Source: Escherichia phage Pollock. From it: a stretch of 64,000 bases of DNA. The notes beneath the pieces were generated by a model. That model ran no database searches and was not told where the DNA came from. It saw only the letters and a list, made by a program, of their open reading frames with translations. This document shows, in pieces, positions 6,318 through 62,641 of the stretch (position 1 is its first letter; each line of letters starts with the position of its first letter). Both the position numbers and the translations under genes were made by a program. The DNA is taken from the sequence record NC_027381.1; one strand, written 5' to 3'.

Positions 6318-6650
6318 ATGAGTAAACCAAAAATTGAAATTGAAAAGATTGATGCTTTACGTAATGCATTTAATGCAATGTACGTATCTCATCAAGAAAT
6401 ATCTGTAGGTGATATTGTTATTCTACACCCTTCAGTTCCGGGAATTTTTAAAGTTCCTACTGAAGAACGTCCGGGTATCGTTACTAAATTTCTACCAAAA
6501 CCAATGTATGCGTATGAAATGGCTGACGATACACGTCCAAGCCATCCTTCTTCAGCAATACAATATGATTGTGTAATCAATATCATTAATGACGATGGTG
6601 AAATTGTTCCATTCTTAATGGATTCTCGTCGCCTCCTTAAAGTTAATTAA
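6318..6650 (+). CDS. hypothetical protein
   Basis: 110-aa ORF followed by terminator. Confidence 0.4.
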   Translation: MSKPKIEIEKIDALRNAFNAMYVSHQEISVGDIVILHPSVPGIFKVPTEERPGIVTKFLPKPMYAYEMADDTRPSHPSSAIQYDCVINIINDDGEIVPFLMDSRRLLKVN

Positions 6651-6704: not shown

Positions 6705-6788
6705 ATGCGTCCTACAGCTATTAAAAAAGCTATTGAAAGAGCTTTTGCAGCAGGACTTGTTCCTTTTATTAAAGGTAGTCCGGGTATT
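6705..6788 (+). CDS. MoxR-like AAA+ ATPase, exon 1 (ends inside Walker A: ...FIKGSPGI)
   Basis: ATG 6705; reading frame stops immediately after GSPGI (TGA at 6789); the GKS that completes the P-loop is at 7179. Confidence 0.55.
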
Positions 6789-7178
6789 TGATTTTACAAG
6801 ATACCCTAAGCAGTGATGCTTAGTAAAAAATCCCTTGAATTGCTGGAAACCCTTAAAGCTGAATTAACTACTGCGAGTTGAAAAACAAAGCCAATGTTTA
6901 AAAATAATTCAGATATGTAGGCAATCAGCAGCCAAGCTCCTAAGGTTTAGGATATTAAGCTATGGAGAAGGTTCAACGACTAGGCGTAAGCCGTACACTC
7001 AAGTGAGTGGAAGTGGGGGACTCTTTACAAACTTACCACCATGGAATACCTTTTGTATTTGCAAAGAAAGGTCTATGTCGTAAATGTAGTAAAGATGAAG
7101 ATATAGTCTCGTCTTATGTGAAAGCATAAGCTGTTTAATAAACAGAGGGTAGCTTAACGAACTACCCTGAAGATTACG
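6789..7178 (+). ncRNA. group I intron 1 (ORF-less), interrupting the AAA ATPase Walker A
   Basis: ~390 nt between exon end (last nt T) and exon 2 (preceded by G); contains AACGACTAGGCG...CTCAAGTGAGTGGAAG core-like element shared with intron 2; exact boundaries approximate. Confidence 0.5.
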
Positions 7179-7421: not shown

Positions 7422-8265
7422 TAAATTAATAGGCATTTATGGGGGAAACCTCATATCTAAAGCTACTTAAAACGGGGAACTCTTAGTAGTGTATATACAC
7501 TAAAGACAATCCGTTGCTAAATAGGAATTAAGATGCAAGAAGTTTGGAAAGCTATTCCCGGATATGAGAAAGAATATGAAATTTCTACTCATGGACGGAT
7601 TAAGAGTTTAGATAGAGTCGTTCCTTGTAAACATGGCACTCGCCTTGTTAAAGGAAAATTATTAAAAACCTATATTAATCGAAAAGGGTATTTAATTGTT
7701 ACTTTATCTAAAGAAAATAAACTGAAAACATATACCGTACATCAGTTAGTTGCTCTTACATTTATTCCAAATTTCATTAAAGGCACAGAAATTAATCATA
7801 AAGACGGTAATAAATCCAATCCAGTATTAGATAATTTAGAAATTAGCAACCCTAGCCATAACCAGTTACATGCTATAGCTACAGGTCTTAAAGCAAAGGT
7901 TGGTAAGAGTAAATACCACAATGTAACTTACATTAAAAACCCACGGGCTAAGAAAAAGTGGGCTGCAAGTATAAGTTATAATGGGGAAAAATCTTTTGGA
8001 TGGAAAACATTTATGACAGAAGAAGAAGCTGCAAGATATGTAGATAAACTTCTTGATGAAATAGGTGATACTTCCCGTTTAAGAAATTTCTAATTAATTC
8101 CTTAAATGCCCAACGACTAGTCGAAAGACGTAGGCTCAAGTGAGTCGAAAAAGTAGCTCCCCAAACAAGTAAAGTTGTGGGGATTGATATAGTCTGCTCT
8201 ATATAGAAATATATAGCTGGATTAATTATCCGGGTAATGATTAACGACCATTACTGAACATAAGG
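7422..8265 (+). mobile_element. group I intron 2 carrying an HNH homing endonuclease ORF (td-like)
   Basis: 7462-7530 CTTAAAACGGGGAACTCTTAGTAG...AGACAATCCGTTGCTAAATAGG closely matches the phage T4 td intron core as recalled; ORF begins right after this element; 3' part has CAACGACTAGTCG...CTCAAGTGAGTCG. Confidence 0.65.
7533..8093 (+). CDS. HNH homing endonuclease (intron-encoded)
   Basis: 186 aa; N-terminal WKAIPGYEKEYEISTHGRIKS, HNH core NHKDGNKSNPVLDNLEISNPSHNQLH, C-terminal AP2-like DNA-binding region. Confidence 0.8.
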   Translation: MQEVWKAIPGYEKEYEISTHGRIKSLDRVVPCKHGTRLVKGKLLKTYINRKGYLIVTLSKENKLKTYTVHQLVALTFIPNFIKGTEINHKDGNKSNPVLDNLEISNPSHNQLHAIATGLKAKVGKSKYHNVTYIKNPRAKKKWAASISYNGEKSFGWKTFMTEEEAARYVDKLLDEIGDTSRLRNF

Positions 8266-43742: not shown

Positions 43743-44930
43743 TTACATCTGAGCTACAGTTTTGTACAAACCAATCCACTCAGGACGCAGAATCAGAGAA
43801 CCGTAGTACCACTTGATAGAAGTGAAACCTAATTCACCGAATGGGTCAGAGTAAGATGCAGTAGCTTCACCCGGTTTTTTAGTGTAGGTAACAAACTTAA
43901 CAGTCTTACCATCAGTCTGGAAGCCAATAGTAGTAAAGGAACCAGAACCAACACACAGCATTGGGAATACGTCATACTTATCATCAGTAGCGTAGTAACC
44001 CGGATTGATAGTTACAGAATCACCTGCACCTGCCCATTTCATCATCTTAGGTACAACGATGATACGGAAAGAAGCAATAGAACCAATCTCACCTTTTAAC
44101 AGATTACCTGCATCTGCATAATGCTGTACTGGAATGAATGCTGCATTACCAAATGGGTCTTGCATCTTACGTAACATCAGTTCCAGTTCAGAACCAATAT
44201 ACAGAGCACGAGCACCTGGGATAACACGAGTATCAGTCATTAGAGAACCTTTAATCATCTTCGTCTGAAGAGGACACAGGTTATCGTTTAAAGTGATACC
44301 TAACTTAACCAGACCATCATAGGTAACTACGTTAGGAGAATTACCTTCACCAGTCATTTCACTGTTTTCTGTAGCTGTACCCGGATAGCGGATAACACCA
44401 GCACCATTCAACAGGTCAATCTGTAACTGGTCTTCAGTGATTTCATTAGCACCTTTAACAGCTTCCTGAATCAAATGCATATCCAATTCTTCATCAGAAT
44501 CGAAATCCATTGATTCTTGGGTCCATTCATAGAAGAAACCAAATTTCTTAATAGTGCCTTCTAATTGAATACGTGTAAAACCAACACGGTTAACACGACC
44601 ACCATTCTCAGTCAGAGTTGGTAGTTTACCCGGAATAGTACCAATGTCTTTACTAGAGCCGTACAGGTTACCTTTATTATCAGAGGTAGTACCATCAGCA
44701 TTAATACCTTGGTCATTCATGTTACGGTCATCCAGTAACGGAACATAATGGTACATCTTAATTTTTTTACCCATATGCTTTGGCATAGCAGTGACATCAG
44801 CAAGCTGGCTGAAGTACATTTCTTTTGCTGCATCTACCAAAGCCTTCTTATAGTAATAATCCAGACGAATCTGAGGACCAATGGTAGAAGCCTTTGGACT
44901 GGAATCAGCTCCGGGGGTATTGTACTGCAT
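43743..44930 (-). CDS. major capsid protein (putative)
   Basis: 395 aa; strongly biased codon usage; follows scaffold-like gene and is followed by a strong terminator; no motif verification. Confidence 0.6.
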   Translation of the reverse strand: MQYNTPGADSSPKASTIGPQIRLDYYYKKALVDAAKEMYFSQLADVTAMPKHMGKKIKMYHYVPLLDDRNMNDQGINADGTTSDNKGNLYGSSKDIGTIPGKLPTLTENGGRVNRVGFTRIQLEGTIKKFGFFYEWTQESMDFDSDEELDMHLIQEAVKGANEITEDQLQIDLLNGAGVIRYPGTATENSEMTGEGNSPNVVTYDGLVKLGITLNDNLCPLQTKMIKGSLMTDTRVIPGARALYIGSELELMLRKMQDPFGNAAFIPVQHYADAGNLLKGEIGSIASFRIIVVPKMMKWAGAGDSVTINPGYYATDDKYDVFPMLCVGSGSFTTIGFQTDGKTVKFVTYTKKPGEATASYSDPFGELGFTSIKWYYGSLILRPEWIGLYKTVAQM

Positions 44931-59922: not shown

Positions 59923-60086
59923 AAAAATATAAAGGTGAAAACCAGAGGATAAGAGCTTTCTTATCCAGAGGTTGGCAAAAGAGTCATATCAGTCATAATG
60001 TATTCCTTGAGTGAGATACGAACAGAATGTTCGTTTCAGCAGTTTGATTGAATTCTCACTTGTTATCACTCTTTTAAGGAAATGTT

Positions 60087-60239
60087 ATGGATAGGCGCTA
60101 CTGTTCGTCTTGCGGTACATTGCAATATAAGTGCCCTGAATGTGGTGAATGGTTTACTAAAAAGAGAAGTGACCAAGTTTTATGTAGGCCGAGTTGTAGA
60201 CAAAGAAAGTCTAGAAGAAAGAAAAAAGAGCAAGAATAA
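60087..60239 (+). CDS. small zinc-ribbon protein (50 aa)
   Basis: AAGGA RBS 6 nt upstream; CSSC...CPEC...CRPSC Cys pairs; basic C-terminus; followed by terminator; not in ORF track (<60 aa). Confidence 0.35.
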   Translation: MDRRYCSSCGTLQYKCPECGEWFTKKRSDQVLCRPSCRQRKSRRKKKEQE

Positions 60240-60247
60240 TGAAAAAT

Positions 60248-60272
60248 AAGCCTCTATTTGAGGCTTTTTATT
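60248..60272 (+). terminator. rho-independent terminator
   Basis: aagcctc-tattt-gaggctt followed by tttatt. Confidence 0.55.
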
Positions 60273-60307
60273 GAATTAAACATTTAATCTAATGTATAAA
60301 GCATTCA

Positions 60308-60384
60308 CGGAATGTAGCACAGCCGGGTAGTGCATCTGCTTTGGGAGCAGAGGGTCATAGGTTCAAATCCTATCATTCCGACCA
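60308..60384 (+). tRNA. tRNA-Pro (anticodon UGG)
   Basis: hand-folded cloverleaf: acceptor CGGAATG/CATTCCG, anticodon loop TTTGGGA, T-loop TTCAAAT, encoded CCA. Confidence 0.75.
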
Positions 60385-60389
60385 AATTA

Positions 60390-60467
60390 TTCCCGTTTAG
60401 CTTAATTGGTTAAAGCACCCGACTCATAATCGGATGATTACAGGTTCGAATCCTGTCACGGGAACCA
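60390..60467 (+). tRNA. tRNA-Met or Ile2 (anticodon CAU)
   Basis: hand-folded: anticodon loop CTCATAA, T-arm ACAGG-TTCGAAT-CCTGT, encoded CCA; exact 5' end ambiguous by 1 nt. Confidence 0.65.
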
Positions 60468-60471
60468 AAAT

Positions 60472-60547
60472 GCATCCTTAGCTCAATGGATAGAGCAGTA
60501 GCCTTCTAAGCTATTGGTTACAGGTTCGAATCCTGTAGGATGCACCA
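60472..60547 (+). tRNA. tRNA-Arg (anticodon UCU)
   Basis: hand-folded: acceptor GCATCCT/AGGATGC, anticodon loop CTTCTAA, T-loop TTCGAAT, encoded CCA. Confidence 0.75.
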
Positions 60548-60552
60548 TATTA

Positions 60553-60637
60553 GGGAGTATGGTGAAATTGGTAAACACAAGGGATTTAAAATCCCTCGCT
60601 TAATTGCTTACGAGTTCGAGTCTCGTTACTCCCACCA
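60553..60637 (+). tRNA. tRNA-Leu (anticodon UAA)
   Basis: hand-folded: acceptor GGGAGTA/TACTCCC, anticodon loop TTTAAAA, long variable arm, T-loop TTCGAGT, encoded CCA. Confidence 0.75.
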
Positions 60638-61491
60638 AATTAGTGCTCTGGTATATTATGTTTAACTCTTAGGTTATGCACAGTATTACAACAGATTGGG
60701 TCATCTGAAATCAGAGCACTAATCCTATATGAACCAGGTATGAACAACTTACTTAGTATTAACAATTCCGCATAGGGGTATGTTTGGGTTGTTGGTGGTA
60801 AGTAGCTGGTTAGAATCCAGCATGGTTCATTAATTAATTGCCATTCTCTTATGGCGATTGGGATAGCACGCTGGCTCTGCTTAAACCAGCATACAACAGG
60901 TAAGAGCACTGAATGTTGACTGGCTTAGCATACCAAATCCAACATTGTTGCCGCAGTGCTCTTACCGTTGTAGCGACCCTGCAACACCGAAGACCGAAGC
61001 TTTTCCTTCCCTGCTTTTTGGGAATAGCACTTCAAACAGGTATATCCTGTATATGTATCAAAGGCGTAAAAACTGGAGATACCAGAGTACTAGAACTCTG
61101 TTACCAAACTCAGGGAGTGATTGGCCTAACCAATCCAACATCCTATCAATGAGTGTACTGAGATAACGTGCGGAGGTTTACACTGTAGCCGGTGTAAATA
61201 GAGAAGACGGCAAGATAGCTACTTGTTCTTAGTGCACTCTTTGATAGTTTTCGTGAGCGACTTTGCGGACTTTTTAGAAACTGACCTCAAAGATAAATGC
61301 AAACGATGATGTTGTTCTGATGGCGGCGTAATAGCCTATAAATCAGCAAGGTCTTCCGATTCCTTGTAAACAAATTCGGCGCACTGGCCCGGTGTGATTA
61401 ATAATGGGCAACTACATCCCTCTAAGGGTATTTAATTAAGTATTCTTAAAGGGATGGGTACTCTCTATCTCCGTAAACATGTCAACTCTTT
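60638..61491 (+). other. ~0.85 kb apparently non-coding, structure-rich region (candidate structured RNA or cis-acting DNA element)
   Basis: no convincing ORF; multiple long inverted repeats (13-bp perfect GGTAAGAGCACTG/CAGTGCTCTTACC at 60899-60965); visibly more GC-rich than flanks; bounded by tRNA-Leu and a strong terminator. Confidence 0.3.
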
Positions 61492-61520
61492 GCCTCTATT
61501 AATTAGAGGCTTTTTTTTTT
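61492..61520 (+). terminator. strong rho-independent terminator
   Basis: gcctcta-ttaat-tagaggc hairpin followed by T10. Confidence 0.7.
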
Positions 61521-61534
61521 ATCCCAATTACTGC

Positions 61535-61588
61535 CTTACGCTTACGCGCTTCCATCGCTCACTACGTTCGCTTGGAGCGCCCGCTTCA
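61535..61588 (+). promoter_or_regulatory. GC-rich CGCTT-repeat cluster upstream of early gene (candidate promoter/operator)
   Basis: CGCTT occurs four times in ~55 nt (cttacgcttacgcgcttcc...cgttcgcttggagcgcccgcttcagg) in an otherwise AT-rich genome. Confidence 0.25.
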
Positions 61589-61612
61589 GGCATTATTGTA
61601 GGAGATTTTATA

Positions 61613-62641
61613 ATGGCTTCCCCTTGCGAAATGCTAGGTTATGAAGAAGGAATGAGATTTGTTGTAGTTAGTCCTAATGAGGAGTTCTCAGTAGGAGATA
61701 CTATATGGCTACATCATGATGATAAATCTCATTGTCCTCTCTTCCGAGATACTGAAGAAGATAATGAAGATGCTAATACCGATTACTGTTATTTAAATAA
61801 TGTAGCTCCTTATTCAGAATCTCATACTCTTGCTTATAACCGTGGATTCAGAAAAGGTGATATTTTATTAGTTACCGAAGATGATGAAGATGAAGATGCA
61901 TTAGCAGGAGATATTGTTACCTTCATCCATGATGATGGTGATACTTGTCCTAAATTTAAAGTACATAGAACTGGTACTGAAGAATATCTCTATCTAGGCT
62001 GTATTGATAGTCTGAAACCAAAAGTTGGCCGTAAAGTTCGTATCATTTATAACTGTACTGCAGGTCATCCATCTGGTTCAGAAGGCATCATCGAAAAAAT
62101 AGATGCAGATGGTGATTTAATGATAAATGTTGATGGTACGTGTTGCTTTCATCATCCATATTCTTGTGTTGTATTTGGTTATTCAGAAGATGAATTATCA
62201 GACAATACAAAATCTGAACCAAAAACAGAATGGACTACTAAACCAGCTTCTGAATGGAAAAAAGGTGATAAAGGAATTGTTCGAGGACAACAGAAATCTG
62301 ACCAACACAATTTCAATATTGGTGCAGAAGTAACCTTTATATCTCATGCTTGGGAAAACAGAGGTCGCTTTGAATCCCCCTCATTCCATCGTTCTCAGAC
62401 AGTTGAATATGATTTGATTGAACCAATTGAATCAAATAAACCATCTGAAACCAAACCAACAGTAGTAGCTGTTGATGAACTTACGGATGTCTCTGGTAAG
62501 TACAAATACTTTATTGATGGTGATTCTATTGAAGTAACTTTAGTTGGTTACTTTGAAGGGGAACCTATCTGTGCATATAAAGACAGATGGGGAGATACTC
62601 AAGTATTCGTTGCTAAGCCTTCTCTACTAGTAAAAGAATAA
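61613..62641 (+). CDS. hypothetical acidic protein (early)
   Basis: ORF track start 61454 rejected because the terminator lies inside the extension; ATG 61613 preceded by GGAG RBS; DEDEDA-type acidic stretches. Confidence 0.45.
   Translation: MASPCEMLGYEEGMRFVVVSPNEEFSVGDTIWLHHDDKSHCPLFRDTEEDNEDANTDYCYLNNVAPYSESHTLAYNRGFRKGDILLVTEDDEDEDALAGDIVTFIHDDGDTCPKFKVHRTGTEEYLYLGCIDSLKPKVGRKVRIIYNCTAGHPSGSEGIIEKIDADGDLMINVDGTCCFHHPYSCVVFGYSEDELSDNTKSEPKTEWTTKPASEWKKGDKGIVRGQQKSDQHNFNIGAEVTFISHAWENRGRFESPSFHRSQTVEYDLIEPIESNKPSETKPTVVAVDELTDVSGKYKYFIDGDSIEVTLVGYFEGEPICAYKDRWGDTQVFVAKPSLLVKE

Follow-up and report, generated by a model that had tools for sequence, protein, structure and literature searches.

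Codon-compensation tRNA clusters are found in phages T4, T5 and Felix O1 and in N4-like phages such as Ithacavirus FSL SP-076, as tandem, one-strand arrays of bacterial-type tRNA genes whose anticodons are biased towards codons used often by the AT-rich phage and seldom by the host. In lambdoid and Stx prophages an Ile(CAU)-Arg tandem, named ileZ-argN-argO in Stx phages, is located between the gene for antiterminator Q and the lysis genes. Two-piece (permuted) tmRNAs are known from alpha-proteobacteria and certain cyanobacteria, and also from some phages of these bacteria; one gene yields both pieces, and the coding piece bears the 5′ acceptor strand. The phage studied here is a lytic N4-like podophage (Schitoviridae) approximately 83% identical to Ithacavirus. 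As in Ithacavirus, its tRNA array lies between the late genes on the terminase side and the rightward genes, but with four tRNAs it is the smallest of the group, the others having 7–10.

An earlier note on this sequence had described a cluster of four tRNA genes at 60308–60637 with the anticodons UGG (Pro), CAU, UCU (Arg) and UAA (Leu). Both the cluster and the anticodons were confirmed, with ARAGORN accepting all four genes and agreeing with the Rfam tRNA model on the same coordinates. Exactly four tRNA genes were found by ARAGORN across the window (the whole 64-kb stretch of DNA that was analysed), all on the + strand:

60308..60384, + strand: tRNA-Pro, anticodon UGG (ARAGORN; Rfam 70 bits; 76.6% identical to K-12 proM)
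60391..60467, + strand: CAU tRNA, putatively of Ile2 (lysidine) type, predicted AUA reader (ARAGORN 'Met'(cat); Rfam 64 bits)
60472..60547, + strand: tRNA-Arg, anticodon UCU, AGA reader (ARAGORN; Rfam 75 bits)
60553..60637, + strand: tRNA-Leu, anticodon UAA, UUA/UUG reader, class II with a long variable arm (Rfam 62 bits; ARAGORN)

With the Rfam RF00005 model, for which the gathering score is 29, the four scored 62.1–75.4 bits (E 1e-14 to 5e-11), well outside what chance would give. Each gave a cloverleaf as its MFE fold, with a 7-nt anticodon loop (U33, purine at 37) and a T loop, and CCA is encoded at the 3′ end of every gene. The spacers within the tandem array are of 3–10 nt. The anticodon loops are those of K-12 proM, ileX, argU and leuZ, and the Leu anticodon stem is also the same as that of its K-12 cognate, while outside the anticodon loop the phage tRNAs differ from the host tRNAs at 23–29% of positions. 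These are genuine, bacterial-type tRNA genes.

It had also been claimed that AGA and UUA are frequent in the phage genes and typically rare in enterobacterial hosts, in agreement with codon-usage compensation. The codons of 50 phage ORFs (18,353 codons) were compared with those of 42 annotated E. coli K-12 genes (14,748 codons), K-12 being a stand-in for the natural host. The counts agreed with the claim: AGA was used at 14.9 versus 1.2 per 1000 (rank 1 of 61 by enrichment) and TTA at 34.9 versus 10.2 (rank 4), with ATA at 8.9 versus 2.4 (rank 3). Of the proline codons, CCT ranked 5 and CCA 19, the latter only 1.8-fold enriched. The rank-sum of the four cognate codons (AGA, ATA, TTA and CCA) was 27 (P = 7e-4 versus random codon sets; P = 0.016 when the null was limited to A-ending codons), which supports the compensation reading with E. 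coli as proxy. The phage genome has a GC content of approximately 36%, and its A-ending cognate codons are used 2–12 times more than in an enterobacterial host. The E. coli tRNAs for these codons are minor ones, the products of argU, ileX, leuZ and proM being of low abundance. AGA was densest in late genes at 20.0 per 1000, compared with 7.8 in early genes and 1.2 in the host sample. Neither AGA nor ATA occurs in the major head protein gene (43743–44930), and hence two of the four tRNAs are not required by the most highly expressed gene. The enrichment demonstrates a match to the tRNA set, not a benefit from it. As relatives of similar composition carry 7–10 tRNAs, the set is not determined by codon use alone, and the repertoire is partly contingent.

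The earlier note had left the CAU tRNA as 'Met/Ile', and of the two the Ile2 side was retained and the Met side was not, given an ileX-type anticodon stem-loop and an annotated homologue. Overall identity to ileX and to metT is 71.4% in each case and does not separate the two, and therefore determinant positions and annotated homologues were used. Over 13 nt the anticodon stem-loop, CGACUCAUAAUCG, is that of ileX, whereas metT has UCACUCAUAAUGA. C4-G69, C29-G41, U12-A23 and A73 all fit the known Ile identity set; the acceptor stem of tRNA-Met has U4-A69 and A5-U68. E. coli TilS reportedly uses the acceptor-stem pairs C4-G69 and C5-G68. The first is present in the phage tRNA, but at 5-68 it has G-C where E. 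coli tRNA-Ile2 has C-G, which makes recognition by TilS uncertain. The D arm, anticodon arm and variable loop are wholly shared with a lambdoid-prophage tRNA that the NCBI pipeline labels tRNA-Ile, the label also carried by the closest E. coli prophage homologue. An initiator tRNA-fMet, in which a C1xA72 mismatch and three consecutive G-C pairs at the lower end of the anticodon stem would be expected, was rejected, as U1-A72 is paired and the anticodon stem (CCCGA/UCGGA) lacks initiator features. That the gene encodes an ordinary elongator tRNA-Met decoding AUG is unlikely. It is what ARAGORN and most GenBank records for such genes would call it, the equal identity to metT and the deviating pair 5-68 would suit it, and CAU tRNAs of relatives are Met-like, that of FSL SP-076 for instance being 78% identical to metT. 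Against it stand, besides the stem-loop, the identity positions and the prophage annotation, a 3.6-fold enrichment of AUA and none of AUG (0.83-fold) relative to the K-12 sample in a phage for which ARAGORN found no other Ile tRNA in the 64-kb window. These features resolve the tRNA towards the Ile2 (lysidine) type and away from Met, which would correct a routine mislabel.

The most likely reading, and one that is considered quite probable, is that of four functional tRNA genes of an Ithacavirus-related phage which serve codon compensation from within an RNA interval. The tRNAs would presumably be co-transcribed, expressed and charged, with the CAU tRNA decoding AUA after lysidine modification by host TilS, and would top up minor host pools so that the large late proteins could be translated at full speed. 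As such, the cluster is ordinary, one more well-matched example of a fifty-year-old phage observation. It has already been put forward that phage tRNAs are counter-defence spares for host tRNAs which are cleaved by anticodon nucleases or lost during infection as the host translation apparatus decays (PMC10264068), and defences that cleave tRNAs are still being described (PMC12445682, PMC13056530). The divergence from the host tRNAs outside the anticodon loop would agree with this. However, the proposed signature of defence evasion consists of escape mutations in the anticodon loop (PMC10264068), and it is absent here since all four loops, as well as the Leu anticodon stem, are the same as in the K-12 cognates. 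Counter-defence also gives no reason why the set should match the codons most at odds with host usage, and it is judged to be rather improbable.

It is less probable still that the tRNAs are largely passengers, carried as mobile cassettes that collect in a recombination-prone, hairpin-flanked region and pass between unrelated phages, with little selection on the set. The array is mosaic, with Pro 83% identical to the FSL SP-076 copy, Arg-Leu 90% identical to the Ithacavirus copies and the CAU-Arg tandem 80–81% identical to copies in siphoviruses of approximately 46–48 kb and in a lambdoid prophage, located there between Q and the lysis genes. Among relatives the arrays range from 4 to 10 tRNAs, and the region is rich in inverted-repeat hairpins of a kind that also flank cassettes in lambdoid prophages. 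Yet all four genes are intact and high-scoring, and the four kept in this smallest array are those for the most skewed codons. The Arg(UCU)-Leu(UAA) pair moreover keeps its position in every Ithacavirus relative, at approximately 90% identity, while the rest of the array varies. Codon compensation remains the preferred explanation for the cluster. The tRNAs open an RNA interval at 60267–61520 that is bounded by terminators, contains no protein gene and also holds strongly folded hairpin modules. The features detected around and within this interval, apart from the tRNAs, were the following:

59972..59999, + strand: sigma-70-like promoter match TTGGCA-16-CATAAT, 5′ of a small ORF (consensus match only)
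60087..60239, + strand: 50-aa Cys-rich (zinc-ribbon-like) ORF adjoining the tRNAs on the upstream side (sub-threshold Pfam Zn-ribbon/NinG-like matches only)
60248..60266, either strand: terminator-like hairpin with a trailing T run, bidirectional; taken as the left boundary of the interval
60271..60300, + strand: candidate promoter, TTGAAT-18 nt-TATAAA, with its end 7 nt upstream of tRNA-Pro (proposed by eye)
60639..60723, + strand: long hairpin 1, with a 12-bp perfect stem ATTAGTGCTCTG/CAGAGCACTAAT
60729..60830, + strand: tRNA-like fold without D arm or CCA (MFE fold)
60899..60966, + strand: long hairpin 2, with a 13-bp perfect stem GGTAAGAGCACTG/CAGTGCTCTTACC
61143..61247, + strand: long hairpin 3, with 21-nt arms that are 86% complementary
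61415..61456, + strand: hairpin 4, with 24-nt palindromic arms
61492..61520, + strand: intrinsic-terminator-like hairpin GCCTCTATTAATTAGAGGC with T10
61613..62641, + strand: next protein gene, 342 aa from an ATG after AGGAG (phrog_26483, unknown function)

The candidate promoter before tRNA-Pro was missed by the scanner because position 6 of its −10 region is A. A terminator scan detected no + strand terminator-like site between 60266 and 61492; the hairpin at 61492–61520 is the first after 60266 and was therefore taken as the right boundary. The start at 61454 that was mechanically assigned to the next ORF, upstream of this terminator, is unlikely to be the real one. The tRNA-like fold has an 8-bp closing stem, a long arm and a T-arm-like GCTGG-TTAGAAT-CCAGC, and had no Rfam match. 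The inverted-repeat motif of long hairpin 2 is that found after tR′ in lambdoid phages, and the 3′ arm of long hairpin 3 ends on the first bases of a further RNA.

This further RNA is an unannotated tmRNA-like element at 61243–61413, approximately 600 bases downstream of the tRNAs and before the next terminator. It comprises:

61243..61298, + strand: leader, predicted antisense to host tmRNA nt ~49–107
61299..61334, + strand: tag-like reading frame ANDDVVLMAA (GCA resume codon, ten codons, TAA TAG)
61317..61346, + strand: helix around the tag-frame end with its stops, CTGAT/ATCAG, resembling tmRNA helix 5 (98.5% paired; 3 of 4 pairs covary)
61347..61379, + strand: pseudoknot A, a CAAGG/CCTTG stem with loop CCGA pairing with downstream TCGG
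61380..61409, + strand: pseudoknot B, CGCAC/GTGTG and GCCC/GGGC around an invariant loop GATTAATAA

The codons of the frame are GCA AAC GAT GAT GTT GTT CTG ATG GCG GCG TAA TAG, and the peptide ends in hydrophobic and Ala residues. Among the homologues there are 27 distinct tag DNAs, every one with ten codons and a stop; third positions vary at nine of the ten codons and second positions at four, and codons 1, 2, 3 and 10 vary only synonymously. The other two frames across the region are not conserved. The frame is under coding-type constraint. Ordinary initiation was rejected, as there is no conserved in-frame start upstream (ATA/ACA/GTA at −2), and no Shine-Dalgarno sequence was seen by eye 5′ of the frame. 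A frame-setting U(−5) A(−4) is present at 61294–61295 (AUAAAU before GCA), with A(−4) invariant in 36 sequences; the role of the corresponding U85-A86 in E. coli tmRNA has been described (PMC2481249).

The helices of pseudoknot A are 98–100% paired, with covariation in seven of nine pairs. Taken together, the downstream pseudoknots had 89% of cells paired and 15 pairs with double changes, while none of 500 shuffles scored as high and slid controls gave 26–47%. A PK1-like fold of the leader had no covariation support. No tRNA-like domain was detected by ARAGORN in the window, at eight loci or within ±400 nt around the scanned viral loci, E. coli ssrA being detected as positive control. The RNA has no acceptor stem, G3:U70, T arm or CCA. 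An acceptor-like pairing, GUUGUG/CACAAC, was rejected since it occurs in lambdoid contexts only and belongs to the inverted repeat of the cassette, which is also present in lambda after tR′. The Rfam tmRNA models gave at best 11.9–22.8 bits against thresholds of 47–84, with matches confined to the tag region. In Sf11 and Felix O1-like phages, consensus promoters on the + strand directly adjoin the conserved 5′ end. Along with the conserved 10-codon frame and an invariant G-U pair in pseudoknot B (36/36), these led to rejection of a minus-strand reading. Rfam did not bear out a hammerhead-like motif that had been noticed by eye in a single lambdoid cassette.

The tmRNA-like RNA is present in hundreds of unrelated enterobacterial phages, both lytic and temperate, and in 591 of 5426 E. 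coli genomes. Its carriers include relatives of Felix O1, P1-like phage-plasmids, lambdoid prophages of pathogenic E. coli and N4-like and Vi1-like phages. It was recognised neither in the sequence records nor by Rfam 15, and a search of the literature on tag peptides, phage tmRNA-like RNAs and antisense or hijack of tmRNA found nothing relevant. This tmRNA-like antisense RNA looks new.

Within the leader, the seed UAGUUUUCGU (61245–61254) is the complement of E. coli ssrA tag codons 3–6, and a seed of 10–11 nt lies at the same ssrA site in 30 of 36 sequences. The predicted duplex of the leader with host tmRNA has a dG of −44.8 versus −28.3±2.9 kcal/mol (z −5.7), and none of 274 real genome windows paired as strongly. 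The leaders of five other families gave z values of −4.3 to −6.3 and those of six more −0.6 to −3.3, with the duplex always ending at ssrA nt 105–108. The signal is in the leader only, the duplex of the whole element with ssrA having P = 0.55 versus shuffles. In a test of host-phage co-variation there was only a coarse match to host range, the tmRNA target being almost invariant in Enterobacterales. Judged by these comparisons, complementarity of the leader to host tmRNA exceeds chance, at a site conserved among homologues.

It is suspected that the RNA pairs with host tmRNA and then either substitutes its own tag or blocks the tmRNA. The leader would anneal to host tmRNA from pseudoknot 1 through the frame-setting U85-A86 and the resume codon to tag codons 1–6, masking the host tag frame and placing the phage resume codon and ANDDVVLMAA next to the host tRNA-like domain, so that stalled ribosomes would be rescued with a phage-specified tag. 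In a less exotic version, the RNA would simply disable host trans-translation. The interval ends in a tmRNA-derived RNA with a probable action on host trans-translation. A tentative proposal, rated at somewhat less than an even chance, is that the tRNAs and this tmRNA-derived messenger module, pairing with host tmRNA, form a phage 'translation take-over' RNA module, with the tRNA cluster as its first half. The RNA at 61243–61413, perhaps extending to the terminator at 61520, would be the last member of this module and a new kind of RNA. If the pairing is true, this would be the first virus to reprogramme or block bacterial ribosome rescue by an RNA that is both tmRNA mimic and antisense. It would also explain a conserved 'non-coding gap' left empty by annotators in hundreds of phage genomes. 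As the RNA is present in model phages, direct testing with standard tools is possible.

Compared with known systems, the CAU-Arg(UCU) tandem has 81% identity, across 96% of its length, with a prophage tandem of E. coli DY612, annotated as tRNA-Ile and tRNA-Arg, and like the lambdoid and Stx tandems it addresses the rare codons AUA and AGA. Those tandems are carried by temperate phages, whereas the present one is flanked by Pro and Leu tRNAs in a lytic N4-like phage. It also differs from FSL SP-076, which has a Met-like CAU tRNA and an Ile(GAU) tRNA in place of the putative Ile2-type CAU tRNA. With bacterial tmRNA (SsrA; RF00023) the phage RNA shares the GCA resume codon, a 10-codon AND...AA frame, stops inside a helix, pseudoknots after the frame and U-A at −5/−4, as in U85-A86 of E. 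coli (PMC2481249). In contrast, it is of approximately 170 nt instead of 363, falls below the Rfam thresholds, has no tRNA-like domain, no helix 2 that could be seen and two downstream pseudoknots only, and carries a leader predicted to be antisense to host tmRNA. Two-piece tmRNAs resemble it in having a separate tag-coding RNA that needs a base-paired tRNA-like partner. However, the acceptor piece is absent from the phage, and the only extensively complementary partner is the one-piece tmRNA of the host, at its tag region. In mycobacteriophage DS6A, a CDS-less tmRNA consisting of the tRNA-like domain only is reported to be an inhibitor of endogenous tmRNA in E. coli (cited in PMC11915505). 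Both would be phage-borne partial tmRNAs that interfere with host trans-translation, which is predicted for the present RNA. As DS6A is described there, it has the tRNA-like domain without a tag frame, while here there is a tag frame with an antisense leader and no tRNA-like domain, and by that description the phage tmRNA-like RNA is the reciprocal half of the DS6A tmRNA.

The closest relatives of the window belong to the Ithacavirus group (Salmonella phages FSL SP-076/SP-058, SP154 and S5, and Shigella phage B2), and its flanks and structural genes match the N4-like podophages (Schitoviridae). Identity to Ithacavirus is ~83% in the structural genes and 77–78% over 60% of the tRNA region. The window has a GC content of ~36%. 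Its genes point rightward up to ~27 kb and leftward between 27.5 and 59.8 kb, in a block that holds an ORF of virion RNA polymerase size (3537 aa) and the genes for the major head protein and the large terminase; beyond it they point rightward again. The tRNA cluster lies at this last switch; 7–10 tRNAs occupy the equivalent site in relatives. Elsewhere, a group I intron was detected at 6778–7130 on the + strand (Rfam RF00028, 101 bits, model matched full-length), with an upstream ORF (6318–6650) falling in phrog_22456 and a 3′ ORF (7533–8093, +) which, from its NUMOD4 and HNH_3 domains, looks like a homing endonuclease.

The earlier note had described a cluster of four tRNAs with the anticodons UGG, CAU, UCU and UAA. 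ARAGORN, run on the whole 64-kb window, returned exactly these genes, at the positions stated in the note, and no others. The features of the region are as follows.

Upstream of the tRNA cluster: zinc-ribbon-like ORF, 50 aa
60248–60266: bidirectional terminator-like hairpin, upstream of the tRNA cluster
60308–60384, +: tRNA-Pro(UGG) (ARAGORN, Rfam)
60391–60467, +: tRNA with anticodon CAU (ARAGORN, Rfam)
60472–60547, +: tRNA-Arg(UCU) (ARAGORN, Rfam)
60553–60637, +: tRNA-Leu(UAA) (ARAGORN, Rfam)
60639–60723, 60899–60966 and 61143–61247, +: long hairpins in the spacer (fold)
60729–60830, +: tRNA-like fold without D arm (fold)
61243–61413, perhaps to the terminator at 61520, +: tmRNA-like RNA, unannotated
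61492–61510 plus T10, +: strong terminator-like hairpin, right end of the RNA interval

The tRNA folds were accepted by both predictors, with 62–75 bits against the Rfam tRNA covariance model (threshold 29), and all four have a cloverleaf, a 7-nt anticodon loop and an encoded CCA. The cluster is thus confirmed as real, far beyond chance. It should also be noted that tRNA features are misplaced in two GenBank records, by ~1024 nt in FSL SP-076 (KC139520.1), where a 202-aa "hypothetical protein" overlaps them, and by ~28 nt from the real genes in Shigella phage B2 (OM858838.1), where several isotypes are also wrong when compared with ARAGORN.

Codon usage was compared between 50 non-overlapping phage ORFs of at least 100 aa each (18,353 codons) and 42 annotated E. 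coli K-12 genes (14,748 codons).

Codon frequencies per 1000 (phage; E. coli K-12) and enrichment rank
AGA: 14.9; 1.2; rank 1/61
ATA: 8.9; 2.4; rank 3/61
TTA: 34.9; 10.2; rank 4/61
CCT: 19.5; 6.0; rank 5/61
CCA: 15.3; 8.7; rank 19/61
ATG: 22.8; 27.4; rank 33/61

The suggestion that AGA and UUA are frequent in the phage and rare in its presumed host was borne out against this sample, and the four cognate codons (ranks 1, 3, 4 and 19) gave a rank-sum of 27 (P = 7e-4 versus random four-codon sets). As P remains 0.016 versus random sets of A-ending codons, the match exceeds general AT-richness. This comparison, the check that the note itself had called for, thus supports its reading of the cluster as consistent with codon compensation; the cluster is ordinary and of a known kind. 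In the leftward late genes AGA stands at 20.0 per 1000, against 7.8 across the early and middle ones. The major head protein gene (43743–44930, −, phrog_1357), the most expressed gene, avoids the codons of two phage tRNAs, with zero AGA and zero ATA where late genes average 20 and 9 per 1000. Since the late genes are AGA-rich and the head gene lacks both codons, it is suggested that the supplement serves the bulk of the large late proteins and not the single most expressed one.

Phage tRNAs have been proposed to escape host anticodon nucleases by anticodon-loop changes (PMC10264068). This does not apply here, as all four loops are the same as those of K-12 proM, ileX, argU and leuZ (100% identity, in tRNA bodies 71–77% identical to these cognates). 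The tRNAs may, on the other hand, simply refill depleted host pools. They could also be cassettes carried as passengers: the array is a clear mosaic, the CAU–Arg tandem having ~80% identity to 46–48-kb siphoviruses and a lambdoid prophage and Arg–Leu ~90% identity to Ithacavirus, and the repertoire has therefore been shaped by cassette exchange. However, the four genes of this minimal array fit the codons most at odds with the host, and the Arg(UCU)–Leu(UAA) pair is always retained, which argues against mere passengers.

The CAU tRNA had been left as Met or Ile. Overall identity (71.4% to both ileX and metT of E. coli) does not discriminate, while determinant positions can. The anticodon stem-loop CGACUCAUAAUCG is exactly that of ileX and differs from metT; the tRNA also carries C4–G69, C29–G41, U12–A23 and A73, and the initiator tRNA features looked for were absent from it. 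Its closest E. coli homologue sits between Q and the lysis genes of a lambdoid prophage and is followed by tRNA-Arg, as in the window. This homologue matches the CAU tRNA throughout the D arm, anticodon arm and variable loop, and the NCBI pipeline annotates it as tRNA-Ile. We read the CAU tRNA as Ile2-type, for AUA, and the Met alternative is not favoured. Pair 5–68 is G–C instead of C–G, making TilS modification probable rather than certain.

Between tRNA-Leu and the hairpin at 61492–61510, no supported ORF and no promoter- or terminator-like site was found. A mechanical ORF (61454–62641, +) starts upstream of this hairpin and reads through it; its true start is probably ATG 61613, after AGGAG at 61600–61604. 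The 613 nt following tRNA-Leu (60638–61250, +) fold at −207.5 kcal/mol versus −160±3.8 for shuffles (z −12.6), with hairpin stems made of the motif GGTAAGAGCACTG/CAGTGCTCTTACC. This motif, which we take to be the inverted repeat after the late terminator tR′ of lambda, flanks tRNA and ncRNA cassettes that have inserted into lambdoid prophages (compared loci L022 and L111), and its hairpins may be RNase III processing or cassette-recombination sites. The fold at 60729–60830, called by neither ARAGORN nor Rfam, is closed by an 8-bp stem (UGAACCA.../...UGGUUCA) and has, besides a single long arm, a hairpin resembling a T arm (GCUGG-UUAGAAU-CCAGC), but neither D arm nor CCA; it may represent a degenerate tRNA or else a signal for processing.

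The tmRNA-like RNA recurs at 72–97% identity in hundreds of records of phages that belong to unrelated families, among them N4-like phages, Felixounavirus, Kuttervirus and other Ackermannviridae, Chaseviridae and 46-kb siphoviruses, and is almost never annotated. Of 5426 complete E. coli genomes, 591 contain it, likewise unannotated, its sites being the interval from Q to the holin gene in lambdoid prophages and the vicinity of the tRNA genes in ~90–100-kb P1-like phage-plasmids. A consensus sigma-70 promoter (TTGACA-17-TATAGT or TAGATT) adjoins its conserved 5′ end in Sf11 and in the Felix O1-like phages, and in the latter a tRNA lies 3′ of it. Among 36 non-redundant sequences, 89% of helix cells are paired and 15 of 31 pairs change on both sides (90 cells), values reached by 0/500 shuffles, with slid controls 26–47% paired; this is a conserved, structured RNA of the + strand.

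Its tag-like frame has a GCA "resume" codon, no start codon and exactly ten codons before the stop. The window tag, ANDDVVLMAA (followed by two stops), differs from the ANDENYALAA of E. coli tmRNA; others include ANDNVFLAVA, ANDDLMLMAA, ANDNTFLAVA and ANDDQFLAVA. Among 27 distinct tag DNAs, codons 1, 2, 3 and 10 change only synonymously, third positions vary in 9/10 codons and second positions in 4/10, and the alternative frames are not conserved. The frame is under coding-type constraint without the means of conventional initiation. Positions −5/−4 from the resume codon are U-A, with A(−4) invariant, at the spacing of U85-A86 in E. coli tmRNA, A86 being its main frame-setting nucleotide (PMC2481249). 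The stop codons lie within a helix, followed by two H-type pseudoknots that show covariation.

While this central part is built like tmRNA, the RNA does not qualify as a true tmRNA: ARAGORN detected no tRNA-like domain in any locus scanned, promoters abutting the 5′ end leave no space for a 5′ acceptor strand, and Rfam's three tmRNA models matched the tag region only, well below threshold. Directly 3′ of it in Felix O1 (NC_005282.1, 1694–1775), and likewise in some of its relatives (L021, L053, L078, L092 and L094 of the compared loci), is a D-arm-less tRNA-like gene with a UCU anticodon loop, long extra arm, acceptor G3:U70 and ACCA in Felix O1 (Rfam tRNA 31.7 bits; no ARAGORN call; no annotation in the record). 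In other Felix O1-like phages this slot is filled by an ordinary tRNA-Arg(UCU), and the window has no counterpart of the D-arm-less gene. Because G3:U70 is the alanine identity element, used by tmRNA too, this gene might encode an RNA partner.

Conservation within the leader (61243–61298) peaks at its extreme 5′ end, where UAGUUUUCGU(C) is exactly complementary to GACGAAAACUA, codons 3–6 of the E. coli tag frame (ssrA nt 96–106), and this seed is the longest ssrA complementarity in 30 of the 36 representatives. When the leader alone was folded against the entire 363-nt tmRNA, the predicted duplex spanned ssrA nt ~49–107, taking in pseudoknot 1, the linker with U85-A86, the resume codon and codons 1–6. 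The window leader gave −44.8 kcal/mol versus −28.3±2.9 for dinucleotide shuffles (z −5.7). Leaders of FSL SP-076, Matapan, two lambdoid types and one further family gave z −4.3 to −6.3 and the P1-like leader −3.3, with weaker values at the same site for Felix O1-like phages, SSEM1 and two other types (−0.6 to −2.6). For the window, FSL and lambdoid leaders, 274 real E. coli genome windows yielded no pairing as strong. The leader is thus complementary to the functional core of host tmRNA, with high significance and at a conserved site. Against its own tag region it reaches −23 kcal/mol versus −45 for host tmRNA, since codons 4–6 are just where the phage and host tags diverge. Among 38 gamma-proteobacterial tmRNAs, the target is nearly invariant within Enterobacterales, leaving no room for a fine test of host–phage co-variation, and predicted pairing drops to −31 to −37 kcal/mol in Pasteurellaceae, Vibrio, Aeromonas and Yersinia, a pattern in coarse agreement with the hosts that phages carrying the RNA infect.

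A model in which the leader docks on host tmRNA and substitutes a phage-specified tag is tentatively preferred. The 5′ seed would dock on the host tag frame, which is single-stranded, and from there the duplex would zip back via the resume codon into pseudoknot 1, masking the host frame and leaving the phage 9-nt linker and resume codon emerging beside host helix 2 and the tRNA-like domain; alanyl-tmRNA-SmpB could then resume on the phage frame. Somewhat less probable is that the RNA only inhibits or destabilises host tmRNA, a reading that leaves the coding-type conservation of the tag frame unexplained; the remaining probability falls to another function or none.

A literature search found no published description of such a phage RNA combining a tag frame and an antisense leader. 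Met via the tRNA cluster's own RNA interval, this anti-tmRNA-like RNA merits separate, high-priority attention. The nearest precedent is the tmRNA of mycobacteriophage DS6A, which has only the tRNA-like domain and is reported to inhibit host tmRNA (cited in PMC11915505); the two are reciprocal, the tRNA-like domain being kept there and the tag frame here.
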